In this document: positions 1-53,662 of the stretch, one piece after another | How the letters are laid out: each line of letters opens with the position of its first letter | Numbering within the stretch: position 1 is the stretch's first letter | DNA from: an uncultured Anaerolineales bacterium | Lineage (GTDB): Bacteria > Chloroflexota > Anaerolineae > Anaerolineales > UBA11858 | NCBI GenBank assembly: GCA_964481465.1 | Contig: CAYZTL010000003.1 | Span: forward strand, 65,717-129,716 | Direction of reading: 5' to 3' | DNA length: 64,000 nucleotides | Made by a program: the position numbers and the translations under genes | The notes under the pieces: model-generated | The model's database searches: none | What the model saw: only the letters and a program-made list of their open reading frames with translations | What the model was told of the DNA's origin: nothing

Positions 1-3000
1 ACACCTTCCACTTCCTCCCCTTGATCATCCGTACGAGGGGCCGACCCCACCACGTCCACTTGGAGGTGCAAATTGGGGAGATATCCCTCTTTAATCGGGA
101 CTTGAAGGGTGGTGCTTCCCCCCGTAAAGGAAAAACTCTCCGTCTCGATCATCCCACTGCGAGCTAAAGTCAACAGCCCCTGCCCGGAATCGAACGGCGC
201 CTGGACCAAAATTTCAGCCACATCGCCGGGTTGATAGGTTTCCTTGTCGGGCACCAGGATGACTTCCTCCCTCTCCACCTTGCGTGAGGGGGGACGCTGA
301 CCTCCACTCACCCAACGCATGATGCGGCTCTGGTTCTCACGACCCTTGCTGTCGGTCACTTTGGCCGTGATCTGGTAACGACCACCGGCTGGCGTCTCGA
401 AGGTGCAGGCCACGGGCTCACTTTGCGAACCTTCCGTGCATTCCTGAAGGTCGACTTCCTCTTCCTGCCACTGGCCGTCCTTGTATTTCCATTCCAAACG
501 GGCGGCTTCCACCTGGATGGGCCGGTCCGTGACGGGCTTTCCATCCAGATCAGTGACGATGAGATCCACATCTATGGGGTCCCCCTGCTGGACAAAATAG
601 CGCTCCGTACGCATCCCCACGTAAAGGTCCGCAGGATGGACCATGAGGTCCGTGGTGCTGGCCCAGGCCTGGCGGTTGACATCGATCACGGTGGCTTCCG
701 CCAGTACGCTGTAGGGCCGGGGCACCTCTGCGCTCTCAATATCTACCTTTAAATAATGGTTTCCGGATGCATCAGTCTTGCCAGAGAACGTGTACTGCGC
801 TCCCCCGCCCTGGGGGCCCAGACCACCTCTGAACATCCACCACGGGGTCCACATCCCGAAGCTGAAATCAGGCCAGTTCGGGGGCTGGTAGTTCGTCGGC
901 TGGGTATTCACGCGCCATTCCACATCCGCGTTGGGCAGGGGTCCCCCGGCATAATATTTGCCCTCCACCGCCACCACCGCTTGATCGCCGATGAAATAAG
1001 GCCCGGTGGTTTCATTGCGGGCTTTGACTTCAAATTCAGGGCGGCGGAACTCCTGGATCTGGAACGGATGGACATGACGGTCCGCCCTCATCCCACCCGC
1101 GCTGCCCAGGGGATCTAAAACCACTTGCGCCTGGCCCAGATTGATGTTATCAGGTAAACTGAAAACGAGATCAAATCCGCCCCAGGCGTTTACCTCCACC
1201 TGACCCTGCGCGATCTCATTCCCCTGCGGACCCGTAACTCGATAGCGAACACCCGTGATCGCCTTCCCTACCAATTCCACGTCTCCGGTCTCCGTGTTTC
1301 CGATCCGACGCATCCAGCCTTTGACGTGAACCTCTTCTCCCGGTTTATACATCTGACGGTCGTCAAAGACATACCAGCGTAATTCATCTAAAACGGACCG
1401 CTTTTGCCACCCTCCCTCACCCCATTCGGATAGAGAGGAAGGCAGTAAAGCGCGGTCCTCCCCTTTGGACGCGACCAGGTAAGAGATCCCTCCCGCAGGG
1501 ATCCCAAAATTCGCTGTGCCATCCCGATCGGTGGCATCCAGCACGTCCCCCGACTCATCTCTGACCTTCACATCCGCCAGGGAGGTGCCGTCCCTCAAGG
1601 CCGTCGTCCAAACCACCATCTCGCTGTGATCCACAAAGGCATCCAGGCCGATCTGCGTGACCTGGACCCAGACCTGAACCACTTCCCAATAGCGTTCTTC
1701 TTTGAATAATCTTTTGGGAGGCTTCGCGATGACCAGGAAATGGCCGTAATCACCGGACATCACTTCACTGAGGTCAATCGGGACCTCCGTTAACGTATCC
1801 GCGTCCCCTTCCACAGGCACAAAGGAATCAAATACCAGGTCACCGGGTGGATCCAGATGATCTTCCGTCCGGTGATAATCCTGAAGATATTTTTTGAAAT
1901 CGGGCCAATGGGAGGGTTCCACCTCGTAAATTTTGACATCCAACCGGTCATAATTGATCGCATAAAGCGACAATATAGGTTTCCTGGACGCAGGATCGAG
2001 GGTGACCAGCCTCCGCTGCGGTCCATATAAAAGGGGTTCAGCTGAACCGATCCGAAATTTCAGGGTTTCATCTTTCCCTAACTTCTGCCCAAAAATATCC
2101 TTGATCTCGCCATCCACGGTTACCCGATATGTCGTCCGGGCTTTCGTCGCTCCCCGAATGCTGATCGAATTCCCGTAAATATTTACCGAGGTATTGGGCA
2201 GCTCCGGTTGGATGCGGAGCATGCCTTCCTCAAAGGCGTCCATATCCAGGGGATTGTTAAAGCGGATGAAGAGGGGGGTCAGGGGGCGGCAAGCTTGATC
2301 CCCCCATGAACACCCGTGATCCATAATTTGCAGGGGTGGATAAGTATAAAAACTGAATCCCTGTCCGTTTTCTGTGGCCAGGGGACCTTCCGCAGAAGGG
2401 GTGCCGGGGCCGATATCCACGGTCACCGTGGTGTTGGCGGGGAAAGGTTCCTGCGCCCGGAAGGCCAGCCAGCGCCCTTCCATAGCGTCGTCCGCCATTC
2501 GTTTGATCCTTTTATCCGCTTTGACTTCTTCCTCAGTGGCCAAGCGCACAGGCACTTCCTCTCCCCCGGCAGAGACATGGATCGTCTCCAGGACTGCCTC
2601 CGGATGTATCCTCTGGTCAAAAGCAGCGAACATCAGGGATTCCAGAACATGGGGTCCATTGGACGGATAGTAGGTCTGGAGGGTGGGAGGTGGGGTTTGG
2701 AATGAGAACTGGACCGTGTCTTCCAATACCTGCCCGGACATCGATTCCACTCCCTCCGGGATGGTGACCTGGTACTTGGTGGCCATGGGCAGGCGGTCAA
2801 AATCCTCCGAATCAGACTGGAAATTCAGGGTCTTCGTGCCCAGCCAGCGCCAGCTGCCGGAGACATCCGGGCTGATTTCTACCGGCACATCTTCTTCTGC
2901 TAACCCTTCCAACGTATCCAGCGGCGCCATGGCCTGGTTAAAGGTAACGCTGATGAAAGGGGCAATGGGGACCTTTCCTTCCGGCGCATAGCGCAGCACC

Positions 3001-3464
3001 TTCAAAGGCTGATCCTCTATAGGTCCCGGCCCTTCCGTCTCATCCGGCGAAGGGAAGACCACTTCGATGGTCTGGCCCGTTAGGGGGGGTGGCAGGACTT
3101 CATCTGGGAGGTTAAACTCCACCTGCATTTCCTCCACCTCCGGTAAATCGGGCAATCGGGCTAAAATGGCCTGGATCTGAGCTTCGGAAAGGGGTTCCCC
3201 CTCTACTTCTTCGGGCCCCTCCGTAGGCGTGGGTTGCGCGCTCCCATCGCTCAGTTTGAGGACCAACCCGGGCTCTTCATCTTCCCCGTCTTCAGTCTGA
3301 GATCTGACTTCATCTCCCCCTGAGCCATCCGTATCTAAAGGGATAGCCTGATCATCCGAAAAGTCCACATCGATCACCTGGGTCAACCTGCAGCCCAGCA
3401 CTGCGAATAAAATCAAACCGATCGCGAGATATTTCTGCCAAGACAAATGCTTTTTCTCAGACAT
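1..3464 (-). CDS. alpha-2-macroglobulin family lipoprotein, N-terminal ~1150 codons (3' end runs off the window)
   Basis: Missing from the ORF track because there is no in-window stop. Manual translation from ATG 3464-3462 gives MSEKKHLSWQKYLAIGLILFAVLGC (signal peptide plus lipobox), then LKVLRYAPEGKVPIAPFISVTFNQAMAPL. MG-domain-like repeats follow (YVFDDRQMYKPGEEVHVKGW; FQIQEFRRPEFEVKA; LVPDKETYQPGDVAEILVQAPF). I checked that the frame is open at several points down to nt 3. Confidence 0.8.
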   Translation of the reverse strand, partial: MSEKKHLSWQKYLAIGLILFAVLGCRLTQVIDVDFSDDQAIPLDTDGSGGDEVRSQTEDGEDEEPGLVLKLSDGSAQPTPTEGPEEVEGEPLSEAQIQAILARLPDLPEVEEMQVEFNLPDEVLPPPLTGQTIEVVFPSPDETEGPGPIEDQPLKVLRYAPEGKVPIAPFISVTFNQAMAPLDTLEGLAEEDVPVEISPDVSGSWRWLGTKTLNFQSDSEDFDRLPMATKYQVTIPEGVESMSGQVLEDTVQFSFQTPPPTLQTYYPSNGPHVLESLMFAAFDQRIHPEAVLETIHVSAGGEEVPVRLATEEEVKADKRIKRMADDAMEGRWLAFRAQEPFPANTTVTVDIGPGTPSAEGPLATENGQGFSFYTYPPLQIMDHGCSWGDQACRPLTPLFIRFNNPLDMDAFEEGMLRIQPELPNTSVNIYGNSISIRGATKARTTYRVTVDGEIKDIFGQKLGKDETLKFRIGSAEPLLYGPQRRLVTLDPASRKPILSLYAINYDRLDVKIYEVEPSHWPDFKKYLQDYHRTEDHLDPPGDLVFDSFVPVEGDADTLTEVPIDLSEVMSGDYGHFLVIAKPPKRLFKEERYWEVVQVWVQVTQIGLDAFVDHSEMVVWTTALRDGTSLADVKVRDESGDVLDATDRDGTANFGIPAGGISYLVASKGEDRALLPSSLSEWGEGGWQKRSVLDELRWYVFDDRQMYKPGEEVHVKGWMRRIGNTETGDVELVGKAITGVRYRVTGPQGNEIAQGQVEVNAWGGFDLVFSLPDNINLGQAQVVLDPLGSAGGMRADRHVHPFQIQEFRRPEFEVKARNETTGPYFIGDQAVVAVEGKYYAGGPLPNADVEWRVNTQPTNYQPPNWPDFSFGMWTPWWMFRGGLGPQGGGAQYTFSGKTDASGNHYLKVDIESAEVPRPYSVLAEATVIDVNRQAWASTTDLMVHPADLYVGMRTERYFVQQGDPIDVDLIVTDLDGKPVTDRPIQVEAARLEWKYKDGQWQEEEVDLQECTEGSQSEPVACTFETPAGGRYQITAKVTDSKGRENQSRIMRWVSGGQRPPSRKVEREEVILVPDKETYQPGDVAEILVQAPFDSGQGLLTLARSGMIETESFSFTGGSTTLQVPIKEGYLPNLHLQVDVVGSAPRTDDQGEEVEG

Positions 3465-3711
3465 GACAGCGCTCCTCTGATCTACCTGCTCCCGTTTGCG
3501 TCACTTGGCTCTCCACGGCTAGGTATTCACCCTCCCCCTACCCTTTTGGAGACAGCGATAATCCCATTTCAATCCATGCGCCAAGTCAAGGACGCCAATC
3601 CTGCTTGTAGAGTGTAGACGCATTTAAGGCCCTTTTTGTTCCCGAGATTCTCGCTGAATTGACTCGTCCTTCGATCAAGGGCCCCCTTTACCCTCAATTA
3701 TGAGATACTCC

Positions 3712-4134
3712 TCAGTTTGAGACTTCAGAGAGAAAGCGGGATAACACCTCCAGCGCATCTCCATGGGTTTGGTAATCCTGGACAGTTAACAAGGGATGGG
3801 GATTTCCCAAAATCATCTTGGAAACCTCCCTATCCCCCCGACGAAGGCACAAGACAGGTTTCCCCAAAGACAAGGCATATCCAATTTCATATCCCACCCC
3901 ATGGGATGGGGTGCTGATCTCCGCCACCAGCAGGTCGCTTTCCTCGATCCATTCCACATCCCGATGGTAAATATCCAAAGGATTCTCCCACTTGTCCCTC
4001 TCCTCAACGCCCGATTCAGCAATGTGGGCAGTGGGGACCTCATGACCAGCCTCCGTCAACGCCTGGACCAGGGTCTGGTACACCTTTTCGTCCTTCCTCC
4101 CTCCGATAATAGAACAAGCGAAATAGATCTTCAT
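3712..4134 (-). CDS. nucleoside 2-deoxyribosyltransferase-like / DNPH1 (Rcl)-like deoxynucleoside 5'-monophosphate N-glycosidase
   Basis: 140 aa. MKIYFACSIIGGR...DVEWIEESDLLVAEISTPSHGVGYEIGYA matches the Rcl/DNPH1 pattern (IYFxGSIRGGR ... VVAEVTxPSLGVGYELG). Confidence 0.75.
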   Translation of the reverse strand: MKIYFACSIIGGRKDEKVYQTLVQALTEAGHEVPTAHIAESGVEERDKWENPLDIYHRDVEWIEESDLLVAEISTPSHGVGYEIGYALSLGKPVLCLRRGDREVSKMILGNPHPLLTVQDYQTHGDALEVLSRFLSEVSN

Positions 4135-4290
4135 AAATACTGTCCAATCCTCATCTGCAGAAAGAAGATGAAAAGCGATAAAATATAGGTGTCATAGATG
4201 AATGGTATTATAGATGAAATCTTCCCGAATGGGCCTGAATTCAGCCATAGTACCCCCGATTAATACCCCACAGGGAAGGCCAAGGAACAA

Positions 4291-33446: not shown

Positions 33447-34556
33447 CTAGAATATATTCAGGCCAAAGAGATGATTCGCCAAGGAAGGATACAGCAAACA
33501 GAACACCGCCAGGGCCAAAATCAGGATTAACCCGACAAGGGCCAGCAAGGAAAGGCATCCGCCCCGAAATCTTTCCGCCCTGGAAGGGGTTTGCTCCTTC
33601 TCGTCAAAGAAAGAAGATACTTTTTCCTTTGTCCCTTCATCCAGATCTTTGGTGATAATCCGTTCTCCCTCGGATTCCTGGTCTTCTTTTGCATCCCCCG
33701 CATCTGACGCTCCCGCACGATCCATACCGAAGCTGAACGCAAACCGCCCACTCTGGGCTTTTAGCAGTTCATTTTTAAACTCCGCAGCCATCTGAAAGCG
33801 GTTGCTGGGATGCACTTCAAGGGCCTTCTCGATGGCATCCGCAACTCTCCGGGACACTTTCGGATTTCGCTCTCGAACGGGCGTCAATTCCTCCTGATCC
33901 ATCGTCCGCGCCAGACTGTCTTCCGGAGTGATCCCCGTCAGGGCGGTGTACAGGGTGGCCCCCAAAGAGTAAATATCCGTCCTGGGATCCGTTCGAGCAG
34001 CGCCATATTGTTCGGGAGGGGAGAAACCCATCGTCATCGCCCTGGCGCCCGTGGAAGTCGTTTGATCTCCCCGGATGATCTTCGCCAATCCGAAATCCAC
34101 CAAGTAGATTTCCTCTCGGGGCGTGATCCGCACGTTGCCCGGCTTGATATCCCGGTGCAAAACGACCGGATCATGGGAGTGCATGTAGGCGAGCGCATCA
34201 CAAATGGTCGCCCCGATCACGATTACCTCTTCCTCCGGAATGACCTTGATGCGCTCCATCCTCTCCTGAAGGTCTTCCCCCTCCACATAATCCATGATCA
34301 AGTATTGCCCTTGATCGGCAATGGAAAAGTGGTCTGTGACACGAGGTAAGTTGGGATGGCGGAGGCTGGCTAAGATGACCGCTTCCCGCTTGAATTGCCG
34401 TGTGTAATCCTCAATGGTGAATAGGTTTTCTTTGACCGCTACCTCAACCCCCAGGTTCTCATCCACTGCCCGGTATATGGATCCCATTCCTCCTTGGCCG
34501 AGGACTTCGATAATCCGATATCTATCTTTGAGGAGAGAACCCTGTTTGAGTGGCAT
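33447..34556 (-). CDS. Hanks-type Ser/Thr protein kinase with C-terminal membrane anchor
   Basis: 369 aa. GQGGMGSIYRAVD, VAVK, HRDIKPGN, DFGLA and SPPE are present, with a TM helix near the C-terminus. Confidence 0.9.
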   Translation of the reverse strand: MPLKQGSLLKDRYRIIEVLGQGGMGSIYRAVDENLGVEVAVKENLFTIEDYTRQFKREAVILASLRHPNLPRVTDHFSIADQGQYLIMDYVEGEDLQERMERIKVIPEEEVIVIGATICDALAYMHSHDPVVLHRDIKPGNVRITPREEIYLVDFGLAKIIRGDQTTSTGARAMTMGFSPPEQYGAARTDPRTDIYSLGATLYTALTGITPEDSLARTMDQEELTPVRERNPKVSRRVADAIEKALEVHPSNRFQMAAEFKNELLKAQSGRFAFSFGMDRAGASDAGDAKEDQESEGERIITKDLDEGTKEKVSSFFDEKEQTPSRAERFRGGCLSLLALVGLILILALAVFCLLYPSLANHLFGLNIF

Positions 34557-42632: not shown

Positions 42633-44033
42633 TTAAGCCTTGCTTGTTTTCATCCCCTCCCGAATCATATCCACCAGCTTCAATGCCCGTTGGGGAGCAT
42701 CGCCGAGATAGCCTTCCGCCTCCATGATCTCCCGTATCTCCCCTTTGGAGAGATAGGAAAGCACTTCCGCATCCTCCATAATCAACCCTTTCAACGGGTT
42801 AGGACCCCCGTTTTGGACAGCAGACCAGGCAGAGAGCGCATGGTCTCGCAAACGCCCATGCATTTTCTGGCGATCAGCCCCCCGTTTGCTCAATTCCATG
42901 AGAAGCGGCTCTGTAGCCGCAAAGGGACCGTACGCTTTAAGATTGCTGGAAATCCCCTGGAGATAAATTTCCAAACCCCCAATTACCTTCTTGCTTACCG
43001 TCAACAATTCATCTGCGATCAGAAATGCCTCCGGCAGGACAGAACGGCGGTTGGCGCTGTCATCCAGCGTCCTCTCTAAAAGGGACAAGGCAGCGTTATC
43101 CCAGGCTACGCGAGGAAATTGTGCTAACAACCGGGCGATCGAATCCATTTTTTCAGCCTGAATGGGGTTGCGCTTGAACGGCATCGCGGAAGAGCCAATT
43201 TGATCCTCACCAAACGGTTCTGACCATTCTCCCAGGGGCGGGGCCTGCAAAATGCGGAGATCGAAGGCGAACTTATGGATTGTCGCGCCGATGCCCGCCA
43301 GCGTGGTTAGTACCCGATAATCCTGGCGCCGGGGATAGGTTTGGGTGACCACCGGATGGAATGGTAAATCCAGTTTCTCCGAAAGGCGGTGCTGAAAATC
43401 GTCCAACTGGTCCGGTCCCAGCAAAGTCAGGTATGAGGCGCTGGTTCCCACCGCTCCTGTAAAGCCTTTCCCCTGGATCTCCTTCCGCAGGCGACCTACA
43501 TCCCGCTCATCCCTCCACAAATCTTGGGCGTACCCCGCAAAACGATACCCCAGGCTGGTCGGTTCCGCGGGTTGCAGGTGCGTGAAGCCCAGAGTGGGCG
43601 TGCTTGCATATCGCTCTACCAAATCAAGGAGAGGGTTTAAGACCTCCCGCAACCTGTGTTGAATGAGATCCAGCCCTTCGCGGGTCAGGAGGACCACGGC
43701 GTTATCTTTAATATCCATCGATGTGGCGCCCAGATGCAGGATCCCCCCTGCCTGCGAACACTGTGCGGCATACACTTCGAGTTCAGCCATCAAATCGTGG
43801 TGGATCCGGCGTTCAACCTCGAGGGATCTTTGCACATCCACCTCAGCCACGTGATCCCGCAAATCCTCAACCTGGGCATCGGTCACCAACCCAAACCTGG
43901 ATTGGACTTCCGCCAGCGCCACCCAGATCTGCCTCCATACCCGCCGTTTGTTGACTTCGCTCCAGATCTCCCTCATCTCTGGCGTCCCGTAACGCCAGCT
44001 GTACGGCGAACGATATTCTCCGTATGTGTTCAT
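42633..44033 (-). CDS. purB: adenylosuccinate lyase
   Basis: YRSPYSWRYGTPEM..., HLGATSMDI and GSSAMPFKRNP (fumarate-lyase signature) are present. ATG 44033 is preceded by AGGAAGG. Confidence 0.92.
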   Translation of the reverse strand: MNTYGEYRSPYSWRYGTPEMREIWSEVNKRRVWRQIWVALAEVQSRFGLVTDAQVEDLRDHVAEVDVQRSLEVERRIHHDLMAELEVYAAQCSQAGGILHLGATSMDIKDNAVVLLTREGLDLIQHRLREVLNPLLDLVERYASTPTLGFTHLQPAEPTSLGYRFAGYAQDLWRDERDVGRLRKEIQGKGFTGAVGTSASYLTLLGPDQLDDFQHRLSEKLDLPFHPVVTQTYPRRQDYRVLTTLAGIGATIHKFAFDLRILQAPPLGEWSEPFGEDQIGSSAMPFKRNPIQAEKMDSIARLLAQFPRVAWDNAALSLLERTLDDSANRRSVLPEAFLIADELLTVSKKVIGGLEIYLQGISSNLKAYGPFAATEPLLMELSKRGADRQKMHGRLRDHALSAWSAVQNGGPNPLKGLIMEDAEVLSYLSKGEIREIMEAEGYLGDAPQRALKLVDMIREGMKTSKA

Positions 44034-44241
44034 CTTCCCTTCCTTTGGCAGCGATTGATACACCCTGGGATACTCAGATCCAAAAATCGTCCATAGAATT
44101 GAAACTTCACATTATAATATTACCAAGACTTTCCAATTCTGTTGTGAAACACGCGGAATAGATGTTGAAAATCTCTCTTGCATATATATCTGACGAGAAA
44201 GGTTCTCAATACCTCAGATTGCGGTTAACAAATAAACAAAC

Positions 44242-44269
44242 TTTACTCTCACCCATCTGACGGTATAAT
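44242..44269 (+). promoter_or_regulatory. candidate promoter of the kinase/PP2C/vWA/FHA operon
   Basis: TTTACT-N16-TATAAT, about 35 nt upstream of the proposed start at 44302. Confidence 0.4.
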
Positions 44270-44301
44270 AAGGAGAAGGTAAACAGAGAGGGGAGGTCAC
44301 T

Positions 44302-46185
44302 CTGGAAACAAGGAAGATCACCGGAAAACTTGAGGAAACCGCCAAATCGAAGGAATACCTCAAGCCTGGTACCAAATTAGAAGGACGATATAAGATCATA
44401 TCCACCGTTGGCCGGGGTGGGATGGGGGCTGTTTACCGTGCTCAAGATCTCCGTTTTTCAGTAAGCAAGATCGTGGCGGTCAAGGAGATGATCAACCAAG
44501 CCTCTGATCCTGAGATCCGGTCCACGATCGTGGATAATTTTGAGCGGGAAGCAAACATCTTGGCCACGGTGAATCACCCGGCCATCCCCACCATCTACGA
44601 TTATTTCACCCTGGGAACCCGGTCTTACCTGGTGATGGAGTTCATTCACGGGAAAAACATGGAAGCCATGCTCCAAGAGCGTGGAGCCCCATTTCCTGAG
44701 GAAAAAGTGATCACCTGGGCTGTCTCGGTCTGCGATGTGCTCCATTACCTGCATACCCATGAACCGGAACCGATCATTTTCAGGGACGTAAAACCAGCCA
44801 ACATCCTCATCGACAGGGATAATCGAGTCAACCTGGTCGATTTCGGCATCGCCAAGACATTCCAGGCGGGCGTAAAAGGGACCATGATCGGCACGGAAGG
44901 CTACTCCCCGCCCGAACAATATCGTGGGGAAGCCTCACCGAAAGTGGATATTTACGCGCTGGGAGCCACGCTCCACCACCTGCTCACCGATAAAGATCCC
45001 AGGACAGAACCCCCCTTTACTTTCGAAGAGCGACCCATCAAAGAACACAACCCCAAAGTGTCTTCAGCTTTAGAAACGATCGTTAATACTGCGCTGCAGT
45101 ACAACCCGCAGGATCGTTTTGACAGCGCGGCCACCATGAAAAAAGCCTTGATCGGCGTGGCTCAACAAACCGGCATGCTCACCGAGGATCTGTCTGTTTC
45201 TCAAGCCACACAATTTTTCCAGGATCAAACCCACGCACCGCTCTGGACTTTCAAATGCGAGGATGAAATCCGCGGCACTCCGACGTTCCACGATGGAGTG
45301 CTTTACATCGGGTCTTATGATCACAATCTCTACGCACTCAACGCGTCCAGCGGCGAGTTCATCTGGAAATATGCCGCAAATGGGGGTATTGTCACCAAAC
45401 CCGCCATTCATGAAAGCAAAGTCTGTTTCGGGTCCACGGACCAGTACGTATACTGCGTCAGCACGCGAACCGGAAAGATGGTCTGGAAGCAATCTACGGA
45501 GGGTGCCATTTACTCTTCTCCATACATCGCAGAAGGGCACCTGTTTATCGGATCAGATGACGAATACCTTCATGTCCTCAACATCCTCACCGGAAGGGAA
45601 GCCTGGAGGACAAATCTCGGATCCAGGGTGAGATCCAGCCCGATCGTGGTCAATGACAAGGTCTATATCGGAAATGAAGGGGGAGATATCCAGTGTTATG
45701 ACTTTAGCGGAAACATCAAATGGCGTACGTCCGCAAAACGAGCTGTGATGGCTTCCCCTCACTACAAAGAAAACATCATCTATATCACCTCCCTCGATTC
45801 TGTCCTCTATGCGATTGATGCCAATTCGGGATGGGTCGTGTGGCGCTTCCGAATGGATAACGGTTCCATCTCCACTCCCACCACCAATGAAAACCATGTC
45901 TACGTGGGTTCGACGGATGGGAAACTGTACTGCATCAACTTAAAATCAAGCAAAAAAGTGTGGGATTATCAAACCGACAACCAGGTCAACAGCTCCCCCG
46001 TTCATTACAAAGGCGCGATTTATTTCTGCAATACAGATGGGATCATATACAGCCTTGACGCGCAAAACGGACGTCTGCGCTGGAAATTCTCAACCAAAGG
46101 ACCCATCACAGGATCCCCCCAGATCGTCAACGACATAGTATATGTGGGATCGACGGACCAGCACATTTATGCTTTGCCTGCCTAG
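44302..46185 (+). CDS. Ser/Thr protein kinase fused to an 8-bladed PQQ-like beta-propeller, no TM segment
   Basis: The track ORF starts at ATG 44422, inside the Gly-loop (GRGGMGAVYRA). The same frame is open from 44272 and encodes conserved LKPGTKLEGRYKIISTVGRGG. It contains no ATG/GTG/TTG, and CTG 44302 lies 5 nt after GGGGAGG. The C-terminal half carries repeated xxVYxGSxDxxLYAL motifs. Confidence 0.85.
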   Translation: METRKITGKLEETAKSKEYLKPGTKLEGRYKIISTVGRGGMGAVYRAQDLRFSVSKIVAVKEMINQASDPEIRSTIVDNFEREANILATVNHPAIPTIYDYFTLGTRSYLVMEFIHGKNMEAMLQERGAPFPEEKVITWAVSVCDVLHYLHTHEPEPIIFRDVKPANILIDRDNRVNLVDFGIAKTFQAGVKGTMIGTEGYSPPEQYRGEASPKVDIYALGATLHHLLTDKDPRTEPPFTFEERPIKEHNPKVSSALETIVNTALQYNPQDRFDSAATMKKALIGVAQQTGMLTEDLSVSQATQFFQDQTHAPLWTFKCEDEIRGTPTFHDGVLYIGSYDHNLYALNASSGEFIWKYAANGGIVTKPAIHESKVCFGSTDQYVYCVSTRTGKMVWKQSTEGAIYSSPYIAEGHLFIGSDDEYLHVLNILTGREAWRTNLGSRVRSSPIVVNDKVYIGNEGGDIQCYDFSGNIKWRTSAKRAVMASPHYKENIIYITSLDSVLYAIDANSGWVVWRFRMDNGSISTPTTNENHVYVGSTDGKLYCINLKSSKKVWDYQTDNQVNSSPVHYKGAIYFCNTDGIIYSLDAQNGRLRWKFSTKGPITGSPQIVNDIVYVGSTDQHIYALPA

Positions 46186-46218
46186 CCCCTAACCCCTCCA
46201 CCTAGCGTATGACCCCTT

Positions 46219-47136
46219 GTGAACATGTTCAGAAAAATCCTCCAAACAATAAAAGAAATTTCTACCCCCCAAGAAACACCAACCCAAACTGAGAACGAAG
46301 CTTTGCAGGTGGAAGAGAAACCTTTCCCAGCAACAAAACTCGTAAAACAGAAGACATATCAACTAAACGTCGGACATGGACAATCCGTTGGACGCCAACG
46401 GAATCATAACGAAGACGCATTTTTCACCTTGACATCCATGTTAGCCTACAATGACACGGAACTCCCCGTCGGATTCTATATTGTGGCGGACGGCATGGGG
46501 GGACACCAAAACGGGGAGGTCGCCAGCGAACTGGCGATCCGTTCCATCGTCGAGCATGTCTTTCATGAAATCCTCACCCCACTGTTGAGCTTAAACCCGC
46601 AACCGCAAGAATCCTCATTTCAGGAAGTCTTCCAGACCGGCATCGAACAGGCAAATTCAGAAATCGTCCGCAGTTCGTATGGGGGAGGTACCACGGTAAC
46701 CACGGTTCTCATCATTGGCGAACAAATGACCATCGCTCATGTGGGGGATAGCCGGGTGTATGCTGTCGATACTGCGGGCAAATTAGATCCGCTAACAAGG
46801 GATCACTCGCTTGTGAAACGCCTTCAAGAATTAGGGCAAATCAGCTCTGAAGAGGCAGCCATCCACCCCCAAAGGAATGTCCTCTACCGGGCCCTCGGGC
46901 AAGGTGAACCTTTTGAACCTGAGATCATGTCCATGAAACGACCCGATGAAGGTTATTTACTCATCTGTTCAGATGGATTATGGAGTATCGTCGAAGAAGG
47001 AAAAATAAGCGAGATCATCATCAACAGCCCATCTCCACAAGAAGCGGTAAACCGCCTGATCGATGCTGCCAATGAGGCCGGAGGGCCGGACAACATCTCC
47101 GTGATCCTGGTTGACCTCCCCGACCTGGCAGCCTAA
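46219..47136 (+). CDS. PP2C-family Ser/Thr protein phosphatase
   Basis: 305 aa. NEDAF, VADGMGGH, GGTT, VGDSR, SDGL and DNISV motifs are present. The start is GTG 46219 or ATG 46225. Confidence 0.9.
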   Translation: MNMFRKILQTIKEISTPQETPTQTENEALQVEEKPFPATKLVKQKTYQLNVGHGQSVGRQRNHNEDAFFTLTSMLAYNDTELPVGFYIVADGMGGHQNGEVASELAIRSIVEHVFHEILTPLLSLNPQPQESSFQEVFQTGIEQANSEIVRSSYGGGTTVTTVLIIGEQMTIAHVGDSRVYAVDTAGKLDPLTRDHSLVKRLQELGQISSEEAAIHPQRNVLYRALGQGEPFEPEIMSMKRPDEGYLLICSDGLWSIVEEGKISEIIINSPSPQEAVNRLIDAANEAGGPDNISVILVDLPDLAA

Positions 47137-47143
47137 TCTTCCC

Positions 47144-48613
47144 ATGTCCGATAAAACTGGTTTTTACGATCGATTAAACCTTTCCCCGAATGCCTCTGAG
47201 AGTGAGATAAGAAGAGCGTACCGCCGGGCTGTGAAAAGGACGCACCCGGATGTCAACAAACGGGATGGAGCAACGAGATTATTCCTGGACATCCAGGAAG
47301 CATATAAGATCTTATCCGATCCCGAACTGAAAAGAGCATATGACGAAGGGAGGGAACCCACGGAGCCCTCCCGGGTCAAAACAGCAGTGACCTACAGCAG
47401 GCCCACCCTGTACAGGATGGATGAGCCGCAAATCATTTACGCCCTGCTGCACATCATCACCACCCAAAAACAAGAGGAAAACCCTGAACTCCCCATTAAC
47501 ATTGCCATCGTCCTCGATACCTCCACTTCCATGCAGGGGAGGCGCCTGCAGCTTTTAAAAGCAGCGACGAGAGAGATTACCAGGGACCTTAACGAAGAAG
47601 ACCGGTTTTCCATTATCACCTTTAATGACCGTGCCAACGTCCTCATCCCCAGTTACCATGAACGAAACACCTCCCAAATCGAGGCGAAAATCAACAGCCT
47701 GATCGCGGAAGGGGGAACGGAGATCTTTCAAGGGCTGGAAGCTGGATTCCATGAGATCAGGAAAGCGATCACCAGTAATTATGTCAACCACATCATTCTG
47801 ATCACTGATGGCCATACATATGGCGACGAGGGAAAATGCAGGGACTTAGCTGAAAGGGCTGCTGACCTGGACATCGGCGTGAGCGGGTTGGGCATCGGCA
47901 GCGAATGGAACGATGAGCTCATAGACGAGATCACAGCCACGGCAGGCGGTCAAAGCGTTTACATCGAACGCCCAAAAGAGGTCAAGGATTTTTTAGAGGG
48001 CACGATCGCAAACCTCAAAAAATCGTATTCAAGGAACATCACCTTGAACGTCAATGAATCCTCCGGGGTAAATGTGCTCTCCGTGTTCCGTCTTCTACCC
48101 GAAGCGCTTCCCCTCTCCCCTCAACCCCAAATTCGACTCGGGACATTGAAGTACGATAAACCGCACCAATTGCTGTTAGAGTTATTGGTGAAACCTCTCC
48201 CCGATCAAATCGAGACTTTCTTAATTGCCGATACCAGTTTACGCGTCAAGTGCAGGAATTCATCCTTCAATATCCCCATCGCCCTCAACCGTCCCATTAC
48301 CTCTCAAAAGGAGGATATGAAACCTCCTCCCGAAATGCTTTACCGGGCCATTTCCCGGCTCACGCTTTATCGACTGCAAGAAAAGGCGAAAGATGATCTC
48401 GAGAAAGGGAAGCCGGATGTCGCCTACCAGCGCATGATCAACCTCGCCTCGCATCTGATGTCAAAGGGTGAAGACAACCTTGCCAGGGTAGCCATGAAAG
48501 AAGCGGATCATATCAAATCACACCACACATTCAGCCCGGATGGGAAAAAACAAATCAAATACGGCACCAGGAGAATGATGTTGCCCAGGAATGTTTCCTC
48601 AGAGCAGCCATGA
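47144..48613 (+). CDS. J-domain (DnaJ-like) - von Willebrand factor A domain fusion protein
   Basis: The J domain reads FYDRLNLSPNASESEIRRAYRRAVKRTHPDVN...AYKILSDPELKRAYD (HPD motif). The vWA MIDAS reads VLDTSTSM...GGTEI...ILITDG. ATG 47144 lies 7 nt after the PP2C stop. Confidence 0.88.
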   Translation: MSDKTGFYDRLNLSPNASESEIRRAYRRAVKRTHPDVNKRDGATRLFLDIQEAYKILSDPELKRAYDEGREPTEPSRVKTAVTYSRPTLYRMDEPQIIYALLHIITTQKQEENPELPINIAIVLDTSTSMQGRRLQLLKAATREITRDLNEEDRFSIITFNDRANVLIPSYHERNTSQIEAKINSLIAEGGTEIFQGLEAGFHEIRKAITSNYVNHIILITDGHTYGDEGKCRDLAERAADLDIGVSGLGIGSEWNDELIDEITATAGGQSVYIERPKEVKDFLEGTIANLKKSYSRNITLNVNESSGVNVLSVFRLLPEALPLSPQPQIRLGTLKYDKPHQLLLELLVKPLPDQIETFLIADTSLRVKCRNSSFNIPIALNRPITSQKEDMKPPPEMLYRAISRLTLYRLQEKAKDDLEKGKPDVAYQRMINLASHLMSKGEDNLARVAMKEADHIKSHHTFSPDGKKQIKYGTRRMMLPRNVSSEQP

Positions 48614-49131
48614 TCACTTGCAAAGTCTGTAAAAACCAAGAATACACCGGCGCCATTTTTTGCAGCGAATGTGGTTCTTCCCTGCTTGCGGATTTCCATC
48701 TTGATGAAGACACGATCGTTTATCCCCGCAAAGAGGGAGAACCCAAATATATAACCATCTCCCATCCTGAAGATTCAGTCCCGGAAGGAAATATCGCCTT
48801 ATACCTGCCTGATTACGAGACTTATTTGGATATTCCAGAACAGGATGAATTCACTTTGGGGCGTTTGATTGAGGGGCAAGTGATCACTCCGGACGTCGAT
48901 TTGAACCCGTATGATGCATACGAAAACGGCATCTCCAGATTACACGCCACGATTAGAATGAATCCCAAGAAGGGCTCCATTCAGGTATTAGACTTGGGTT
49001 CCGCAAACGGTACCAGCGTGAACGGCTATGAAATCCCAGCCAACTCAGAAGTCCCCCTTTCAAATGGAGATATTTTAACCTTGGGTACACTGCATTGCAA
49101 AGTCATCATCCCCGACCAGATAGAATCTTAA
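48610..49131 (+). CDS. zinc-ribbon + FHA domain protein
   Basis: 173 aa. CKVCKNQ...CSECG is followed by an FHA core (FTLGR...ISRLHATI...VLDLGSANGTSVNG...L.NGDILTLG). There is an ATGA overlap with the upstream gene. Confidence 0.88.
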   Translation: MITCKVCKNQEYTGAIFCSECGSSLLADFHLDEDTIVYPRKEGEPKYITISHPEDSVPEGNIALYLPDYETYLDIPEQDEFTLGRLIEGQVITPDVDLNPYDAYENGISRLHATIRMNPKKGSIQVLDLGSANGTSVNGYEIPANSEVPLSNGDILTLGTLHCKVIIPDQIES

Positions 49132-49144
49132 TGGGAAGAAAACT

Positions 49145-49387
49145 ATGTCCACATCCATCATCCTGCATATTCAAAATACCGAACCGGTCTTGGGAGAAGT
49201 TGAAGAACTCCCCGAACCAACCGACACCATGGTGAAAGTCAGCAATCCTCGCCAGCGCGACGGCAAAGACCTGATCTTTCTAGAACATAACGTGGTCACC
49301 GTTTATTGGCCGATTGCCCGGATCAACTTCATTGAAATCCTGCCAGGAGAAGAGGAAGAAGAAGTGATTAGCTTCGTAAGAGAGTAA
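49145..49387 (+). CDS. small acidic hypothetical protein (80 aa)
   Basis: It sits 13 nt after the FHA gene and 5 nt before the response-regulator gene. Composition is coding-like, but I recognise no domain. Confidence 0.6.
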
Positions 49388-49392
49388 AACGT

Positions 49393-50148
49393 ATGTCACC
49401 CAATTTGTCAAAATACAAGATCCTCGTCGTTGATGATGAAAAACGGATGGTTCGTTTCATTCAGTTGAATTTGGAACAAGACGGTTTCCAGGTGGTCACA
49501 GCCTATAACGGGAAGGAAGCCTTAGATCAAGTGCGGACGCAATTACCAGACTTGGTGTTATTAGATATTATGATGCCCGATATCGACGGGTTCGAGGTCC
49601 TGAAGAAAATTCGCGAGGTGAGTGAAGTCCCAGTGATCATGCTCACCGCAAAGGGGGAAGAAGATGATCGCGTGAAAGGTCTCGAATTGGGCGCTGACGA
49701 CTACATCACGAAACCTTTCAGCCCCCGAGAATTGGTGAGCAGGATCAAAGCTGTCCTCCGACGAACGAAAACTTTTCAAGAGGACCAAGTCGATATCGTC
49801 GAAGTGGATGACCGTTTGAAAATCGACTTCTCCCGCCGGGAAGTGTGGGTGGAGGGGGAAAAAGTCGATCTCCGCCCTACAGAATACAGGCTGCTGTACC
49901 ACTTGGTTAAAAATGCCGGATGGGTGAATACGCATGAGCAGTTGTTAACCAAAGTGTGGGGATTTGAATACCGCGACGAACCTCATTATGTCCGGCTTTA
50001 CGTCAACTATCTGAGGAAAAAACTCGAAAAAGATCCCTCTAATCCCGAATACATCCTCACGGAAAGGGGCGTGGGGTACCGCTTTGTTGATTTCCGCAGG
50101 GAGGATGAGGGCGAAAAGAAGGACCAAGAGAACGAAAAAGCCGGCTAA
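49393..50148 (+). CDS. OmpR/PhoB-family response regulator (receiver + winged helix)
   Basis: 251 aa. ILVVDDE...[11 protein letters not shown]...MLTAKG...[10 protein letters not shown], with a C-terminal LTxxEYRLL...GVGYRF. No histidine kinase gene is nearby. Confidence 0.92.
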
Positions 50149-50399
50149 GGGATTGTGACCTTAGCACACCTCAGCACCCTTAACCAAGGCCTCTTAATCC
50201 GTTTATATATTTCATAGATTCATCGGTTATCATTGTGTATGAGTGAAGAAAATGAAGGTGAATGAATGATTTGCGATATAATGGATAGCGAAAGACGGTA
50301 AGAATAACTCACCTTTCATTCGCTTTATGAGTTAACAAAAAACCTTGTCTGTTTGGCACTCTGGGGGATTTCAATCCAGAGTCCGCAGGGAGATAAAAA

Positions 50400-51071
50400 A
50401 TGACCATACAAAGGATTTTATTAGTTGATGATCACGAGGTCGTGCGCTTGGGGTTAAAATCCCTTCTCAATCGACACACCAAATTCCAAGTCGTCGCGGA
50501 AGCCAAAACCGGTTCCGAAGCTGTAGCGAAAGTAGAACAGTACAATCCGGATATCGTGATTATGGATATCCGGTTGCCTGGTGGATCCGGTATTGAAGCC
50601 TGTGAAGAGATCACGGAAAAATACCCCGATACCAGAGTGATCATGTTGACTTCCTATGCGGAAGATGAAATGCTTTTCTCATCCATCCGTGCAGGAGCCT
50701 CAGGATACGTGTTAAAGCAAGTGGGGAATGAAGAGTTAGTGGACAAAATTGAAGCGGTAGGACGGGGAGAAGCGATCCTGGATCCGGCCGTTACCCAGCG
50801 GGTTTTCAAAGAAGTCAGAAAAGCCGCTCGTGAGGAAGAAGCCTCCGCTTTTTCTGATCTCACAGACCAAGAGAAACATGTCCTGATCCATGTTTCAGAA
50901 GGGAAAACCAACCGGGAAATCGCCAAAACCCTTTACCTAGGCGAAGGGACAGTCCGGAATTATGTCAGCAGCATCTTATCCAAACTGGATGTCAGCAACC
51001 GAGCGGAAGCTGCTGCATACGCGGTGAAGCACAACCTCCGCAACCACTTGGTCCATCTGACGAAGGACTAA
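50400..51071 (+). CDS. NarL/LuxR-family response regulator
   Basis: 223 aa. [11 protein letters not shown]...[10 protein letters not shown]...LTS, plus the [46 protein letters not shown]. Confidence 0.92.
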
Positions 51072-51094
51072 GCTCGATCAAGAACACAATATCG

Positions 51095-51129
51095 ATGAAG
51101 AATGGCGACGTGCCATTCTTCATTTTTTC
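51095..51129 (+). terminator. rho-independent terminator after the NarL-type regulator gene
   Basis: ATGAAGAATGGC/GCCATTCTTCAT forms a 12-bp perfect stem with a 5-nt loop, followed by TTTTTT. Confidence 0.85.
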
Positions 51130-51595
51130 ATTCCTGGGGAGGTTGGTCCACTTTCAGGTAATTCGACACCGCCCAACCATTTCTACCTGGGTTTGCAGGG
51201 GCTTCTAAATACCACCACTGGTATCCATCTTCTTCCACCGGCCCATCCTGGACGTGAAAGACCTCGTCTTCTAATCCCAGGTAATTGATCTCCGCATTCA
51301 AGGAGGGCTGAACCCGGAGGCGAAGGCCTTTCCCCCCTGTGCCTTCGATCTTCACATATCCACCTAACGCAATCTTTCCACTGGGAACAGGGGATGGGGC
51401 CTGCTCCTTTTCCGGAAGGGATGGTGTGGGAGTTTCCGTGGGACGTGGAATCACCGTTAATTCCGCCTTTCCCCGAAATTGATCCTGTGCAGGTGCTGGT
51501 AAACCTTCGACCCACAAGAACAATCCCAAAAGAAGAAGGGAACTGACTACAATTGATCCGAAAATCACCCAGGGGTTCAAATACTCCTTGATCAT
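51128..51595 (-). CDS. membrane-anchored bacterial SH3-domain protein
   Basis: 155 aa. An N-terminal TM helix and Pro-rich linker precede the SH3b-like GGYVKIEGTGGKGLRLRVQPS...GWAVSNYLKV. There is an ATGA overlap with the upstream lipid-kinase gene. Confidence 0.7.
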   Translation of the reverse strand: MIKEYLNPWVIFGSIVVSSLLLLGLFLWVEGLPAPAQDQFRGKAELTVIPRPTETPTPSLPEKEQAPSPVPSGKIALGGYVKIEGTGGKGLRLRVQPSLNAEINYLGLEDEVFHVQDGPVEEDGYQWWYLEAPANPGRNGWAVSNYLKVDQPPQE

Positions 51596-52533: not shown

Positions 52534-52657
52534 GGCAAAAATGCCCTCCCCACCTTCCCATAAACGATGCCAATACTCAAGTTTACTGTAACACACCAAC
52601 ACCGTCAATCAGGTAGTGGTACAATCCAATCAGATTCAAAGACAGAGGACAAGGCAC

Positions 52658-53662
52658 ATGGAAAACGTGTTAAATGAACGCTACCGGATGGAAAAACAAT
52701 TGGGATCCGGGGGGATGGCCATTGTCTACCAGGCGACGGATCTCATGCTCGAGCGCACCATCGCCATTAAGGTCTTAAAAGAAAATTTCTCAAGCTCTCC
52801 CGCCTTCCAAGAACGTTTCAAACAGGAAGCGAAAGCCGCCGCAAACCTATCTCATCCTAACATCGTCACCGTCCATGATTTCGGATTGGACCAGAATCGT
52901 CTGTTCATTGTCATGGAATTCGTGCCGGGAACGGACCTAAAGCAGCTCATCAAAGAATCCGAAGGCGGACTGCCCATCGAAAAGACCTCCCGCTTGTTCA
53001 TTCAAGCCTGTGCTGGTGTAGGGTACGCCCACCGCGCAGGCCTCATCCACTGTGACATCAAACCGCATAACATGTTGATCACACCGGACAACCGCTTGAA
53101 AGTCACCGACTTTGGTATCGCACGCGCGTTAGCATCCATAAATCCAGAAGAACGCACCAATGCCATTTGGGGTTCCCCCTCCTACTTCTCCCCAGAGCAG
53201 GCTGCCGGGGCGCCACCCTCCCCAGCCTCTGACGTGTACAGCCTGGGTATTGTGCTGTACGAAATGGTCACAGGAAGGCTCCCTTTTCCTCCCACAAATC
53301 CAGAGCAAGCGGCCCTTGATCACCGCTTGAAAGACCCCCCTTCCCCCCGAGAATTCAACCCCCAGATCTCTGAGGAGTTGGAAAAAATCATCCTCAAAGT
53401 CCTCTCCAAAGAACCCAGCGCTCGCTATCGCACGGCAGACCAGCTGGGGCGGATTATGATCAACTTCACCCAAGCCGAGCAGAAAAAACCCGGCGCCTAT
53501 CACATGCCAGCTCGCTCTGAAGGGGAACCATGGGTTCTGGAACGAAAGGAAAAGGATGCCAGCATTAATTGGGTCACCATCCTGGTTGGCCTCCTGGCTC
53601 TCATCGCCGTAGGAGGGCTGATCCCTTTCTGGATGTGGGTATATTTTACGATCAATCCCTGA
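52658..53662 (+). CDS. Hanks-type Ser/Thr protein kinase with C-terminal TM anchor
   Basis: MENVLNERYRMEKQLGSGGMAIVYQATD, AIKV, HCDIKPHN, DFGIA and SPEQ are present, with a TM helix at the C-terminus. ATG 52658 is preferred over the track GTG 52616. Confidence 0.9.
   Translation: MENVLNERYRMEKQLGSGGMAIVYQATDLMLERTIAIKVLKENFSSSPAFQERFKQEAKAAANLSHPNIVTVHDFGLDQNRLFIVMEFVPGTDLKQLIKESEGGLPIEKTSRLFIQACAGVGYAHRAGLIHCDIKPHNMLITPDNRLKVTDFGIARALASINPEERTNAIWGSPSYFSPEQAAGAPPSPASDVYSLGIVLYEMVTGRLPFPPTNPEQAALDHRLKDPPSPREFNPQISEELEKIILKVLSKEPSARYRTADQLGRIMINFTQAEQKKPGAYHMPARSEGEPWVLERKEKDASINWVTILVGLLALIAVGGLIPFWMWVYFTINP

Follow-up and report, generated by a model that had tools for sequence, protein, structure and literature searches.

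A conserved six-gene Anaerolineae operon combines an ArnA/ArnB-like FHA-vWA pair with a Ser/Thr kinase, a PP2C phosphatase, and an OmpR-type response regulator

Gene clusters that combine kinase, PP2C, FHA, and vWA proteins are common in bacteria and poorly understood, and neighborhoods of the kinase-PP2C-vWA(-FHA) kind have been noted before (PMC7159879). Here, we analyze one such cluster, a six-gene operon in a 64,000-nucleotide (nt) stretch of contig CAYZTL010000003.1 from an uncultured Anaerolineales bacterium, which we refer to in its full length as the window. By Pfam, the gene content in order is a Hanks-type Ser/Thr kinase fused to a PQQ propeller, a PP2C phosphatase, a J-domain-vWA fusion (hereafter J-vWA), a Zn-ribbon-FHA protein (hereafter gene 4 or the FHA protein), an 80-residue protein (p80), and an OmpR-type regulator. 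The first-pass annotation of this DNA knew of no experimental characterization of such a set. This needs to be revised, since the core pair resembles the studied ArnB/ArnA proteins, and a Deinococcus operon with vWA, kinase, FHA, and PP2C genes has also been studied.

The ArnA/ArnB network controls the archaellum of Sulfolobus acidocaldarius, and crystal structures, the kinase ArnC, mapped phosphosites, and phenotypes are on record for it (PMC6509490, PMC12852372). The Zn ribbon of ArnA binds the junction between the β-sandwich and the helical bundle of unphosphorylated ArnB, which gives a loose complex. The Hanks-type kinase ArnC phosphorylates several Thr residues of the ArnB helical bundle sequentially, the FHA domain of ArnA then binds tightly, and PP2A reverses the process. 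The state of the complex tracks nutrient supply and controls archaellum expression, and the DNA-binding factors involved are unknown (PMC6509490, PMC12852372 for all three statements). The window operon resembles this network in its adjacent Zn-ribbon-FHA and vWA genes, its tripartite vWA protein, its transcriptional output, and a Hanks-type kinase and Ser/Thr phosphatase that act, here by analogy, on the pair. There are also differences. The Sulfolobus network, with ArnC/ArnD and PP2A, is archaeal, and its ArnB lacks a J domain; ArnC carries OB and TPR-like regions, whereas the window kinase carries a PQQ propeller. In the window, kinase and phosphatase are co-operonic and the phosphatase is of the PP2C rather than the PP2A type. 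In addition, genes for an Sm-like 80-residue protein and a response regulator are part of the window operon; for ArnAB, no path to DNA-binding factors is known.

A bacterial system of similar gene content is the Deinococcus radiodurans operon DRA0331-DRA0334, which encodes a vWA protein, a Ser/Thr kinase, an FHA protein, and an FHA-PP2C protein, and for which an antagonism of FHA and phosphatase has been shown experimentally (bioRxiv 10.64898/2026.01.23.701218). Both are bacterial operons with a vWA protein, a Hanks-type kinase, an FHA domain, and a PP2C. However, the Deinococcus kinase is membrane-anchored through three transmembrane helices, its PP2C has a KI-FHA domain of its own, and the operon lacks the J domain, the propeller, the 80-residue protein, and the response regulator. 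The kinase of the window operon is reminiscent of AfsK from Streptomyces, which is likewise a cytoplasmic Ser/Thr kinase ending in a PQQ β-propeller but is not encoded with PP2C, FHA, vWA, or response regulator genes. AfsK controls AfsR, a transcription factor with an OmpR-like DNA-binding domain. It also controls polar growth via DivIVA (bioRxiv 10.1101/2021.03.01.433328). A further parallel is found in Bacillus subtilis, where the Hanks-type kinase PrkC and the PP2C phosphatase PrpC modulate the OmpR-family regulator WalR by Thr phosphorylation at the receiver dimer interface (PMC4478028). PrkC differs in being a PASTA kinase of the membrane, the gene for WalR accompanies that of its own histidine kinase and not that of the Ser/Thr kinase, and FHA, vWA, and J components are missing from that system.

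Two other systems can be compared. The PpkA-PppA-Fha1 circuit of type VI secretion unites a Hanks-type kinase, a PP2C, and FHA with a vWA domain, the latter located in PpkA, to control the assembly of a complex. There, in contrast to the window operon, the kinase itself contains the vWA domain, which is periplasmic, and a secretion machine is activated post-translationally as the output; secretion genes are absent here. FraH of Anabaena is a protein with a double zinc ribbon and an FHA domain (named in bioRxiv 10.64898/2026.01.23.701218), which, compared by architecture, resembles gene 4 in its N-terminal ribbon, its C-terminal FHA domain, and its filamentous host. FraH differs by a long proline-rich linker, and no vWA partner is known for it.

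The six open reading frames (ORFs) lie on the + strand between 44302 and 50148, and the first-pass annotation's junction gaps of 33, 7, -4, 13, and 5 nt were reproduced exactly (Table 1). The same annotation had placed the start of the feature at 44242, which is the -35 hexamer of a promoter rather than coding sequence. This promoter, TTTACT-16-TATAAT, is the top sigma70-like site within 43500-51500 and matches at 10 of 12 positions. In 62 of 77 related loci, an exact TATAAT lies 14-64 nt (mostly 31-37 nt) 5' of the kinase start, paired in more distant lineages with TTGCAA, TTGCCA, or TTGTCA at 17-nt spacing, and a GGAGG-like element precedes the kinase start by 3-12 nt in 61 of the 77. The six genes are thus tightly coupled and driven from one near-consensus promoter with a short leader; an Rfam scan of the whole window found no RNA family, and no riboswitch or leader was found. 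No + strand terminator comparable to the strong one downstream of the neighboring NarL-type gene lies between the OmpR-type stop and the NarL-type start. Altogether, the data support the earlier proposal that genes 1-6 are a single co-transcribed phospho-signaling unit with a writer, an eraser, and a reader, the kinase, PP2C, and FHA domains all being intact. While the six genes listed in that annotation are real, it had missed the conserved NarL-type neighbor, the CTG start of the kinase, and the relationship to ArnAB.

Table 1. Coordinates of the operon and adjacent features in the window
Feature	Coordinates	Strand	Description
Operon promoter	44242-44269	+	-35 TTTACT, 16-nt spacer, -10 TATAAT
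Shine-Dalgarno sequence GGGGAGG	44290-44296	+	5 nt before CTG start
Kinase-propeller	44302-46185	+	627 amino acids (aa); Ser/Thr kinase ~30-280, 8-bladed PQQ/BamB-like propeller ~305-627; soluble (predicted); CTG start
PP2C (Stp1/IreP-like) Ser/Thr phosphatase	46219-47136	+	305 aa; GTG start
J-vWA protein	47144-48613	+	J domain 1-67; split β-sandwich 78-106 and 298-386; vWA with MIDAS 118-292; C-terminal helical bundle 397-478
ArnA-like Zn-ribbon-FHA protein	48610-49131	+	C4 ribbon C4, C7, C18, C21; C-terminal FHA; start overlaps J-vWA stop (ATGA)
p80	49145-49387	+	80 aa; predicted five-stranded Sm/LSm-like barrel, acidic disordered tail, invariant C-terminal F-x-R-E
OmpR/PhoB-type response regulator	49393-50148	+	251 aa
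Junction, kinase to PP2C	46185 to 46219		33 nt
Junction, PP2C to J-vWA	47136 to 47144		7 nt
Junction, J-vWA to FHA	48610-48613		ATGA overlap, -4 nt
Junction, FHA to p80	49131 to 49145		13 nt
Junction, p80 to OmpR-type	49387 to 49393		5 nt
NarL/GerE-type response regulator	50400-51071	+	conserved neighbor, 251 nt 3' of OmpR-type gene
Intrinsic terminator, strong	51094-51124	+	14-bp stem, then T run, 3' of NarL-type gene

In the J-vWA protein, Pfam recognizes DnaJ (E 7.9e-20) and VWA (E 2.4e-22). Its AlphaFold2 (AF2) model (predicted local distance difference test [pLDDT] 82.4, predicted template modeling score 0.76) shows two strands, residues 78-106, joining the later β-sandwich around the vWA domain. 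In a Foldseek search of the PDB, this model matched the Catenulispora vWA protein 4fx5 first (E 1.4e-26) and then ArnB from the Sulfolobus acidocaldarius ArnAB complex (8s05_A/B, E 6.5e-25 and 6.7e-24; target-normalized TM-score 0.75-0.76 over ~420 columns), followed by the ArnB paralogue 5a8j (E 3.6e-20), inter-alpha-inhibitor heavy chain, and Sec24. ArnB is therefore its best solved-structure fold match after one structural-genomics vWA protein. It is also the best by sequence among non-J PDB entries (8s05_A, profile E 2.3e-19; in single-sequence comparison, 5.4e-11 vs 2.7e-06 for the next vWA protein). As modeled, J-vWA thus has the tripartite ArnB fold, i.e., a β-sandwich that the vWA domain divides and that is followed by a helical bundle.

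The functional motifs of J-vWA are complete. Counting as invariant any position conserved in at least 97% of orthologues, we found that the HPD motif of a J-domain co-chaperone (H34-P35-D36) is invariant, as are residues D125, S127, S129, T192, and D222 of the MIDAS (metal-ion-dependent adhesion site), which align with the ArnB MIDAS motifs LDTSGSM, GGQT, and LLTDG. The expectation that the J and vWA domains would be free of inactivating substitutions is therefore borne out. In the C-terminal bundle, T475 is invariant in the context KYGT-R-R-[L/M], and S464 and S404 are conserved in at least 80% of orthologues. With a hydrophobic residue at pT+3 (relative to the phosphothreonine), which many FHA domains prefer, T475 is the best candidate phosphosite, and S464 and S404 are candidates as well.

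The partner protein encoded by gene 4 has the architecture of ArnA. Pfam finds FHA (E 7.8e-13) and a weak double-zinc-ribbon match (DZR), and the four ribbon Cys residues and the FHA phosphothreonine-pocket residues (GR, SRLH, NG) are invariant in 73 orthologues. The CxxC-x10-CxxC spacing is the same as that of ArnA C21/C24/C35/C38 (PMC12852372). When the Zn ribbon alone was compared with the PDB by sequence, ArnA was not matched, as this stretch is too short and has diverged too far; the likeness to ArnA thus consists of architecture and Cys spacing only. The genes of the pair are translationally coupled, the -4-nt ATGA overlap being also the median gap over 79 loci. Given that J-vWA is closest to ArnB in both fold and sequence and that gene 4 has the ArnA architecture, we conclude that the pair is a bacterial counterpart of the ArnAB module.

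To assess conservation, we scanned one genome per GTDB species with a pattern for J-vWA, found 570 with a relative, and fetched the best 80 of the 570 (L001-L080). All but one of the 80 genomes are labeled Chloroflexota, Chloroflexi, Chloroflexia, or Anaerolineae/Anaerolineales; a metagenome-assembled genome (MAG) of Anaerolinea thermophila is among them. The remaining one (L013, CAXMRF010000007.1), labeled as an uncultured Nitrosomonadaceae bacterium, holds a complete Anaerolineae-type operon at 58-87% identity, and its label is probably a binning or labeling error in the source MAG. Searching with the window proteins (tblastn), we found that in 80 of 80 loci the seven genes, the NarL-type neighbor included, keep their order and orientation as far as each contig reaches, down to 37% J-vWA identity, so that the gene set does behave as a unit in a neighborhood survey anchored on J-vWA, as had been proposed. 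The median gaps over ~78 loci are 27.5, 5, -4, 12.5, and 3 nt, and the NarL-type gene follows after a median of 195 nt. In comparison, the flanking genes (purB-like, diacylglycerol [DAG] kinase, rpe, fakA, and others) are kept in only 2-37 of the 80 loci, depending on the gene, and mostly in closer relatives. Since flanks are retained in at most 37 loci, the cluster is conserved beyond background synteny, and its fixed arrangement is far beyond chance. At the protein level, invariant positions make up 62% of the NarL-type and 53% of the OmpR-type regulator, 28% of the kinase, 24% of PP2C, 17% of p80, 15% of the FHA protein, and 14% of J-vWA.

This distribution bears on a possible association with vWA-centered signaling and conflict systems, in surveys of which the first-pass annotation placed neighborhoods of this kind. 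Under the conflict explanation, the operon would be a defense system of the vWA-MoxR ternary type, with kinase, PP2C, and FHA as immune regulators. Neighborhoods of vWA, kinase, and PP2C genes and FHA-containing vWA proteins have indeed been described in this context (Kaur et al. 2020, PMC7159879), and in PADLOC the kinase models PD-T4-6 and mad6 give scores for the kinase domain. However, these kinase matches and those of PP2C are generic, and PADLOC found nothing for J-vWA, FHA, or p80. Neither the operon nor its flanks encode a MoxR AAA+ or other nucleoside triphosphatase or an effector domain, and strong, class-wide conservation in fixed order within a housekeeping context (purB, rpe, fakA, recG) is at odds with a conflict role. 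A search of plasmids likewise gave no full-length J-vWA match, the best hits being vWA-only proteins with 24-31% identity. We therefore regard a conflict system as very improbable, and the operon looks like a vertically inherited core regulator of Anaerolineae instead.

One plasmid hit may be mentioned as a separate observation. On Deinococcus deserti plasmid 2 (L091 5306-7158), an ArnB-like vWA protein with 28% identity over the vWA region is encoded by a gene that overlaps an upstream MerR-family regulator gene by 4 nt. This is another coupling of a vWA protein to a transcription factor, here without a kinase cluster.

The first gene encodes the putative writer of the system. Its Pfam matches are Pkinase (E 6.9e-44), Beta-prop_ACSF4 (E 6.7e-78), and PQQ_2 (E 1.4e-48), and the propeller consists of eight h-Y-x-h-D/N...G...W repeats at ~40-residue spacing, five found by regular expression and three by eye. 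At least 80% of 77 orthologues keep each of the following elements, and for most of these the share is at least 97%: the glycine loop GRGGMG, VAVKE, the αC Glu (FEREAN), FRDVKPAN, DFG, and the activation loop KGTMIGTEGYSPPE. The His of the HRD motif is replaced by Phe. As judged from these motifs, including the activation-loop Thr, the protein is a Hanks-type kinase with an intact catalytic set. The highest 19-residue Kyte-Doolittle mean across all operon proteins is 1.11, so that no stretch fits a membrane helix and all of them are predicted to be soluble. This agrees with the earlier description of a soluble kinase with an eight-bladed propeller, which lacks a transmembrane segment. The best NCBIfam model for the kinase is AfsK (NF053615), at 209.8 bits vs an equivalog cut-off of 1300. 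With a score so far under the cut-off, the protein is not an AfsK orthologue, and what the two have in common is the architecture alone.

The start codon of the kinase is unusual. Its frame, which is open from the TAA at 44269-44271 onward, is free of ATG, GTG, and TTG up to 44422, where an ATG encodes the Met within the ATP-binding glycine loop GRGGMGAVY. Since a start in the glycine loop is impossible, the true start is the CTG at 44302. Across 79 loci, the start codon is CTG in 65, TTG in eight, ATG in four, and GTG in two, and the N-terminal 40 residues are conserved as protein across related loci. This pattern suggests that CTG serves as a deliberately weak codon on the first gene. A consequence of the conserved CTG is that programs for ORF calling that accept only ATG, GTG, and TTG cut the kinase short within the ATP-binding loop. 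The start is thus an annotation hazard, as well as a possible example of expression control at the level of the start codon.

The opposing activity would come from the second gene, which matches Pfam PP2C (E 5.3e-17) and, at 221 bits vs a cut-off of 230, the NCBIfam model Stp1_PP2C_phos. Its metal-binding motifs NED, ADGMGGH, CSDGLW, and GGPDN are invariant in orthologues.

The fifth gene product, p80, has no Pfam, NCBIfam, or PADLOC family. Its AF2 model has five strands (pLDDT 77.5), and all listed top Foldseek PDB matches but one are Sm/LSm proteins, with the Edc3 LSm domain as the best; these matches are weak (E ~0.03-0.09, TM-score 0.44-0.73). Conserved features are an invariant His8 in strand 1, an N-P-R-x-R-D-G-K-D loop, and the C-terminal motif given in Table 1. 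A profile search of 1.84 billion representative proteins returned 223 relatives at E <= 1e-3, mostly of 80 aa. In all contexts of the 80 loci (median gap 3 nt) and in five distant ones, p80 lies directly 5' of an orthologous OmpR-type regulator; in the five distant contexts, the regulator is 60-69% identical, and an FHA gene just upstream is visible in three. In one of the five, L083 (GCA_020630805.1, 4331-5401), p80 and the regulator (69% identity) stand alone, 3' of a polyprenyl synthase gene, and the kinase, PP2C, J-vWA, and FHA genes are absent upstream. Since this pair is kept across distant contexts, even by itself, it represents the tightest linkage in the system.

Homology searches also returned more distant p80 relatives of 120-180 aa in Candidatus Limnocylindrales, which likewise belong to the Chloroflexota. 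These proteins (L085 9001-9396 and L086 9001-9429) share the N-terminal domain, including His8, and continue with a low-complexity linker and a C-terminal F/L-x-R-V-R/K-D/E. Their genes sit between a Big_5 gene and topA, within a dprA-...-topA-xerC-murJ context.

The sixth gene encodes the presumed output, with Pfam matches to Response_reg (E 7.6e-36) and Trans_reg_C (E 1e-24). The acidic pocket D14/D15, the phospho-Asp D58, T85, and K107 are conserved, as expected for a receiver with a winged-helix output domain. The best NCBIfam models all score below their cut-offs: RpaB (239.7 bits vs 330), MtrA (235.8 vs 300), YycF/WalR (235.0 vs 340), and PhoB (226.3 vs 296.2). No histidine kinase is encoded in the 64-kb window, as HATPase_c matches, searched with Pfam in all ORFs of at least 150 aa, are confined to HtpG and GyrB, and none was found within ~8-10 kb (less where a contig ends) of the operon in the window or in three Pfam-annotated relatives. 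The regulator was described earlier as an orphan, which is accurate as to its location; it does not extend to its chemistry, since the residues for Asp phosphorylation are all kept.

Thr phosphorylation could offer a second route to this regulator. [quoted passage not shown] This raises the alternative that the operon controls growth, the envelope, or the cell cycle through direct action of the kinase on the regulator or regulators, similar to PrkC-PrpC/WalR, PknB/MtrA, or AfsK/AfsR and DivIVA, whereas FHA, J-vWA, and p80 would be secondary scaffolds or substrates. The correspondence of T106 to Thr101 speaks for it, as does the fact that the best models of the regulator, RpaB, MtrA, and YycF/WalR, are conserved master regulators of other phyla. 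The regulator itself is 70-96% identical across loci, and its 53% of invariant positions fits such a role. Anaerolineae are, moreover, filamentous, which also counts for this explanation. The AfsK-like design of a cytoplasmic kinase with a PQQ propeller points the same way (bioRxiv 10.1101/2021.03.01.433328). On the other hand, all regulator matches lie under the equivalog cut-offs, a PASTA domain is missing, and genes for the cell wall or for division are found neither in nor beside the operon. A growth module would leave the invariant, translationally coupled ArnAB-like pair and the J domain unexplained. We consider this explanation possible but rather unlikely, and note that it overlaps with an ArnAB-type switch instead of excluding it.

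Another alternative concerns nutrients. The OmpR-type protein could be the equivalent of PhoB/PhoP, tuned by the kinase module according to nutrient state in a manner comparable to the starvation response of ArnAB, in which the state of the complex changes with the availability of nutrients (PMC6509490, PMC12852372). With 226 bits, PhoB belongs to the best models of the regulator, although it scores under RpaB, MtrA, and WalR as well as under its own cut-off, and no PhoR-like kinase lies nearby. In one lineage, represented by L087 (1679-6877) and L028 (60-3049), the operon is located directly 3' of pstSCAB-phoU. This is not so in the other 86 loci, and with adjacency in only two of 88 (tblastn), we rejected a phosphate link as a conserved association. 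A phosphate- or nutrient-starvation regulator in this sense therefore appears improbable.

Downstream of the operon lies a second response regulator of the NarL/GerE type (Response_reg, E 4.5e-31; GerE, E 7.8e-15). An orthologue of at least 71% identity is found at this position in 72 of the 80 loci, and most of the other eight contigs end earlier; L081/L082, a single more distant lineage, lack it downstream. In 53 of the 72 loci, the gene has its own promoter, TTGYCA-N16-18-TAYACT, with a conserved ACTCTAG-like element in the spacer. Given this promoter and the absence in L081/L082, we treat the gene as a conserved neighbor outside the core, and it is probably a separate transcription unit. 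In the subclade formed by the window and L001-L003, the promoter region (50330-50399 in the window) keeps the -35 (TTGTCT) while the -10 is degenerate. The gap between the two regulator genes widens to 600-950 nt in L048-L080, where the Anaerolinea thermophila lineage and others have room for an extra ORF of ~146 aa (L060 11053-11493). Both regulators keep every receiver residue for Asp phosphorylation.

Taking these results together, we lean toward a general scheme in which the operon is a cytoplasmic ArnA/ArnB-type phosphothreonine switch that feeds response-regulator-dependent transcription. We judge this scheme somewhat probable as a whole, and any single step of it much less so. In this scheme, the weak CTG start would keep the kinase scarce relative to its partners, and the propeller would bind a cytoplasmic ligand or protein and thereby control kinase activity, as proposed for AfsK. 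The kinase would phosphorylate Thr residues in the C-terminal helical bundle of J-vWA, with T475 as the best candidate. As in ArnAB, the FHA protein would thereby pass from loose binding through its Zn ribbon to tight binding of phosphothreonine through its FHA domain, and PP2C would reverse this change. The J domain could recruit DnaK-ATP to remodel or dissolve the FHA/J-vWA complex, or to act on a client held by the MIDAS, which might take the terminal Glu of p80 or its acidic tail as a ligand. The state of the complex would then set the activity of the OmpR-type regulator through phosphorylation of T106, through tethering or release by p80, or through both. An unlinked histidine kinase probably also phosphorylates the regulators on Asp. 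As input signal, the state of growth, nutrients, or the envelope appears most plausible.

Several points weigh against the switch as we describe it. Every mechanistic step beyond the anatomy of the operon is taken from related systems by analogy. The sequence similarity of J-vWA to ArnB is limited to the vWA domain and the start of the β-sandwich, with alignments stopping at about residue 310; the ArnB_C/RHB domain is not recognized by sequence (at Pfam E <= 0.01, only DnaJ and VWA families are found), and the predicted fold alone matches there. Moreover, ArnB-like three-domain vWA proteins are widespread (4fx5, YfbK, Sec23/24), and therefore the fold alone is no proof of the same switch mechanism. 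On the ArnA side, the FHA match to gene 4 is only marginal (E 0.78). As for p80, the Sm-like assignment from its model is weak (E ~0.03), the orthologue alignment contains no invariant Ser or Thr, and the presence of distant relatives beside topA in Limnocylindria means that the protein is not exclusively a regulator partner. Finally, since their canonical Asp residues are kept, both regulators may answer mainly to unlinked histidine kinases, in which case membership in the operon would amount to co-expression only.

A more far-reaching version of the phosphothreonine switch can be formulated, which we offer tentatively and doubt in its full extent. Here, the operon would be a hard-wired Anaerolineae pathway from a Ser/Thr kinase to a response regulator, in which an ArnAB-like complex, with Hsp70 brought in by its own J domain and with p80 as a new Sm-like adaptor, gates a class-wide master OmpR regulator and partly or wholly replaces a cognate histidine kinase. 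It would supply the link from ArnAB to DNA that is missing in archaea, and the CTG start would set the stoichiometry of the kinase or couple its synthesis to initiation-factor status.

The surroundings of the operon in the window are housekeeping genes, namely a purB-like lyase gene, rpe, fakA/degV, recG, gyrB, and htpG. Two more small, soluble Hanks-type kinases that consist of the kinase domain only are encoded at 33447-34556 (- strand, 369 aa) and 52616-53662 (+ strand, 348 aa). The latter belongs to a conserved downstream neighborhood (NarL-type regulator, orf155, DAG kinase, kinase, rpe) common to L087 and L088. The 155-aa ORF at 51128-51595 (- strand) has no Pfam or NCBIfam family and is kept beside the DAG-kinase-like gene in ~30 related loci. 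At the edge of the window, positions 1-4290, which look free of ORFs, are a minus-strand ORF of at least 1166 aa that runs past the window edge.

The literature searched yielded no account of a fusion between a J domain and a vWA/ArnB-like protein, and no description of a co-operonic PQQ-propeller kinase, of the Sm-like p80/response-regulator pair, of this class-wide Anaerolineae operon, or of a conserved CTG start. By uniting an ArnAB-like pair with a kinase, a phosphatase, and a DNA-binding regulator, the operon provides a concrete candidate for the output step of ArnAB, and the J-vWA fusion predicts a role for Hsp70 in the phospho-switch. For the Anaerolineae, which are abundant, filamentous, and little studied experimentally, the operon is likely to be a central regulator, with its two regulators 70-99% identical between genomes.

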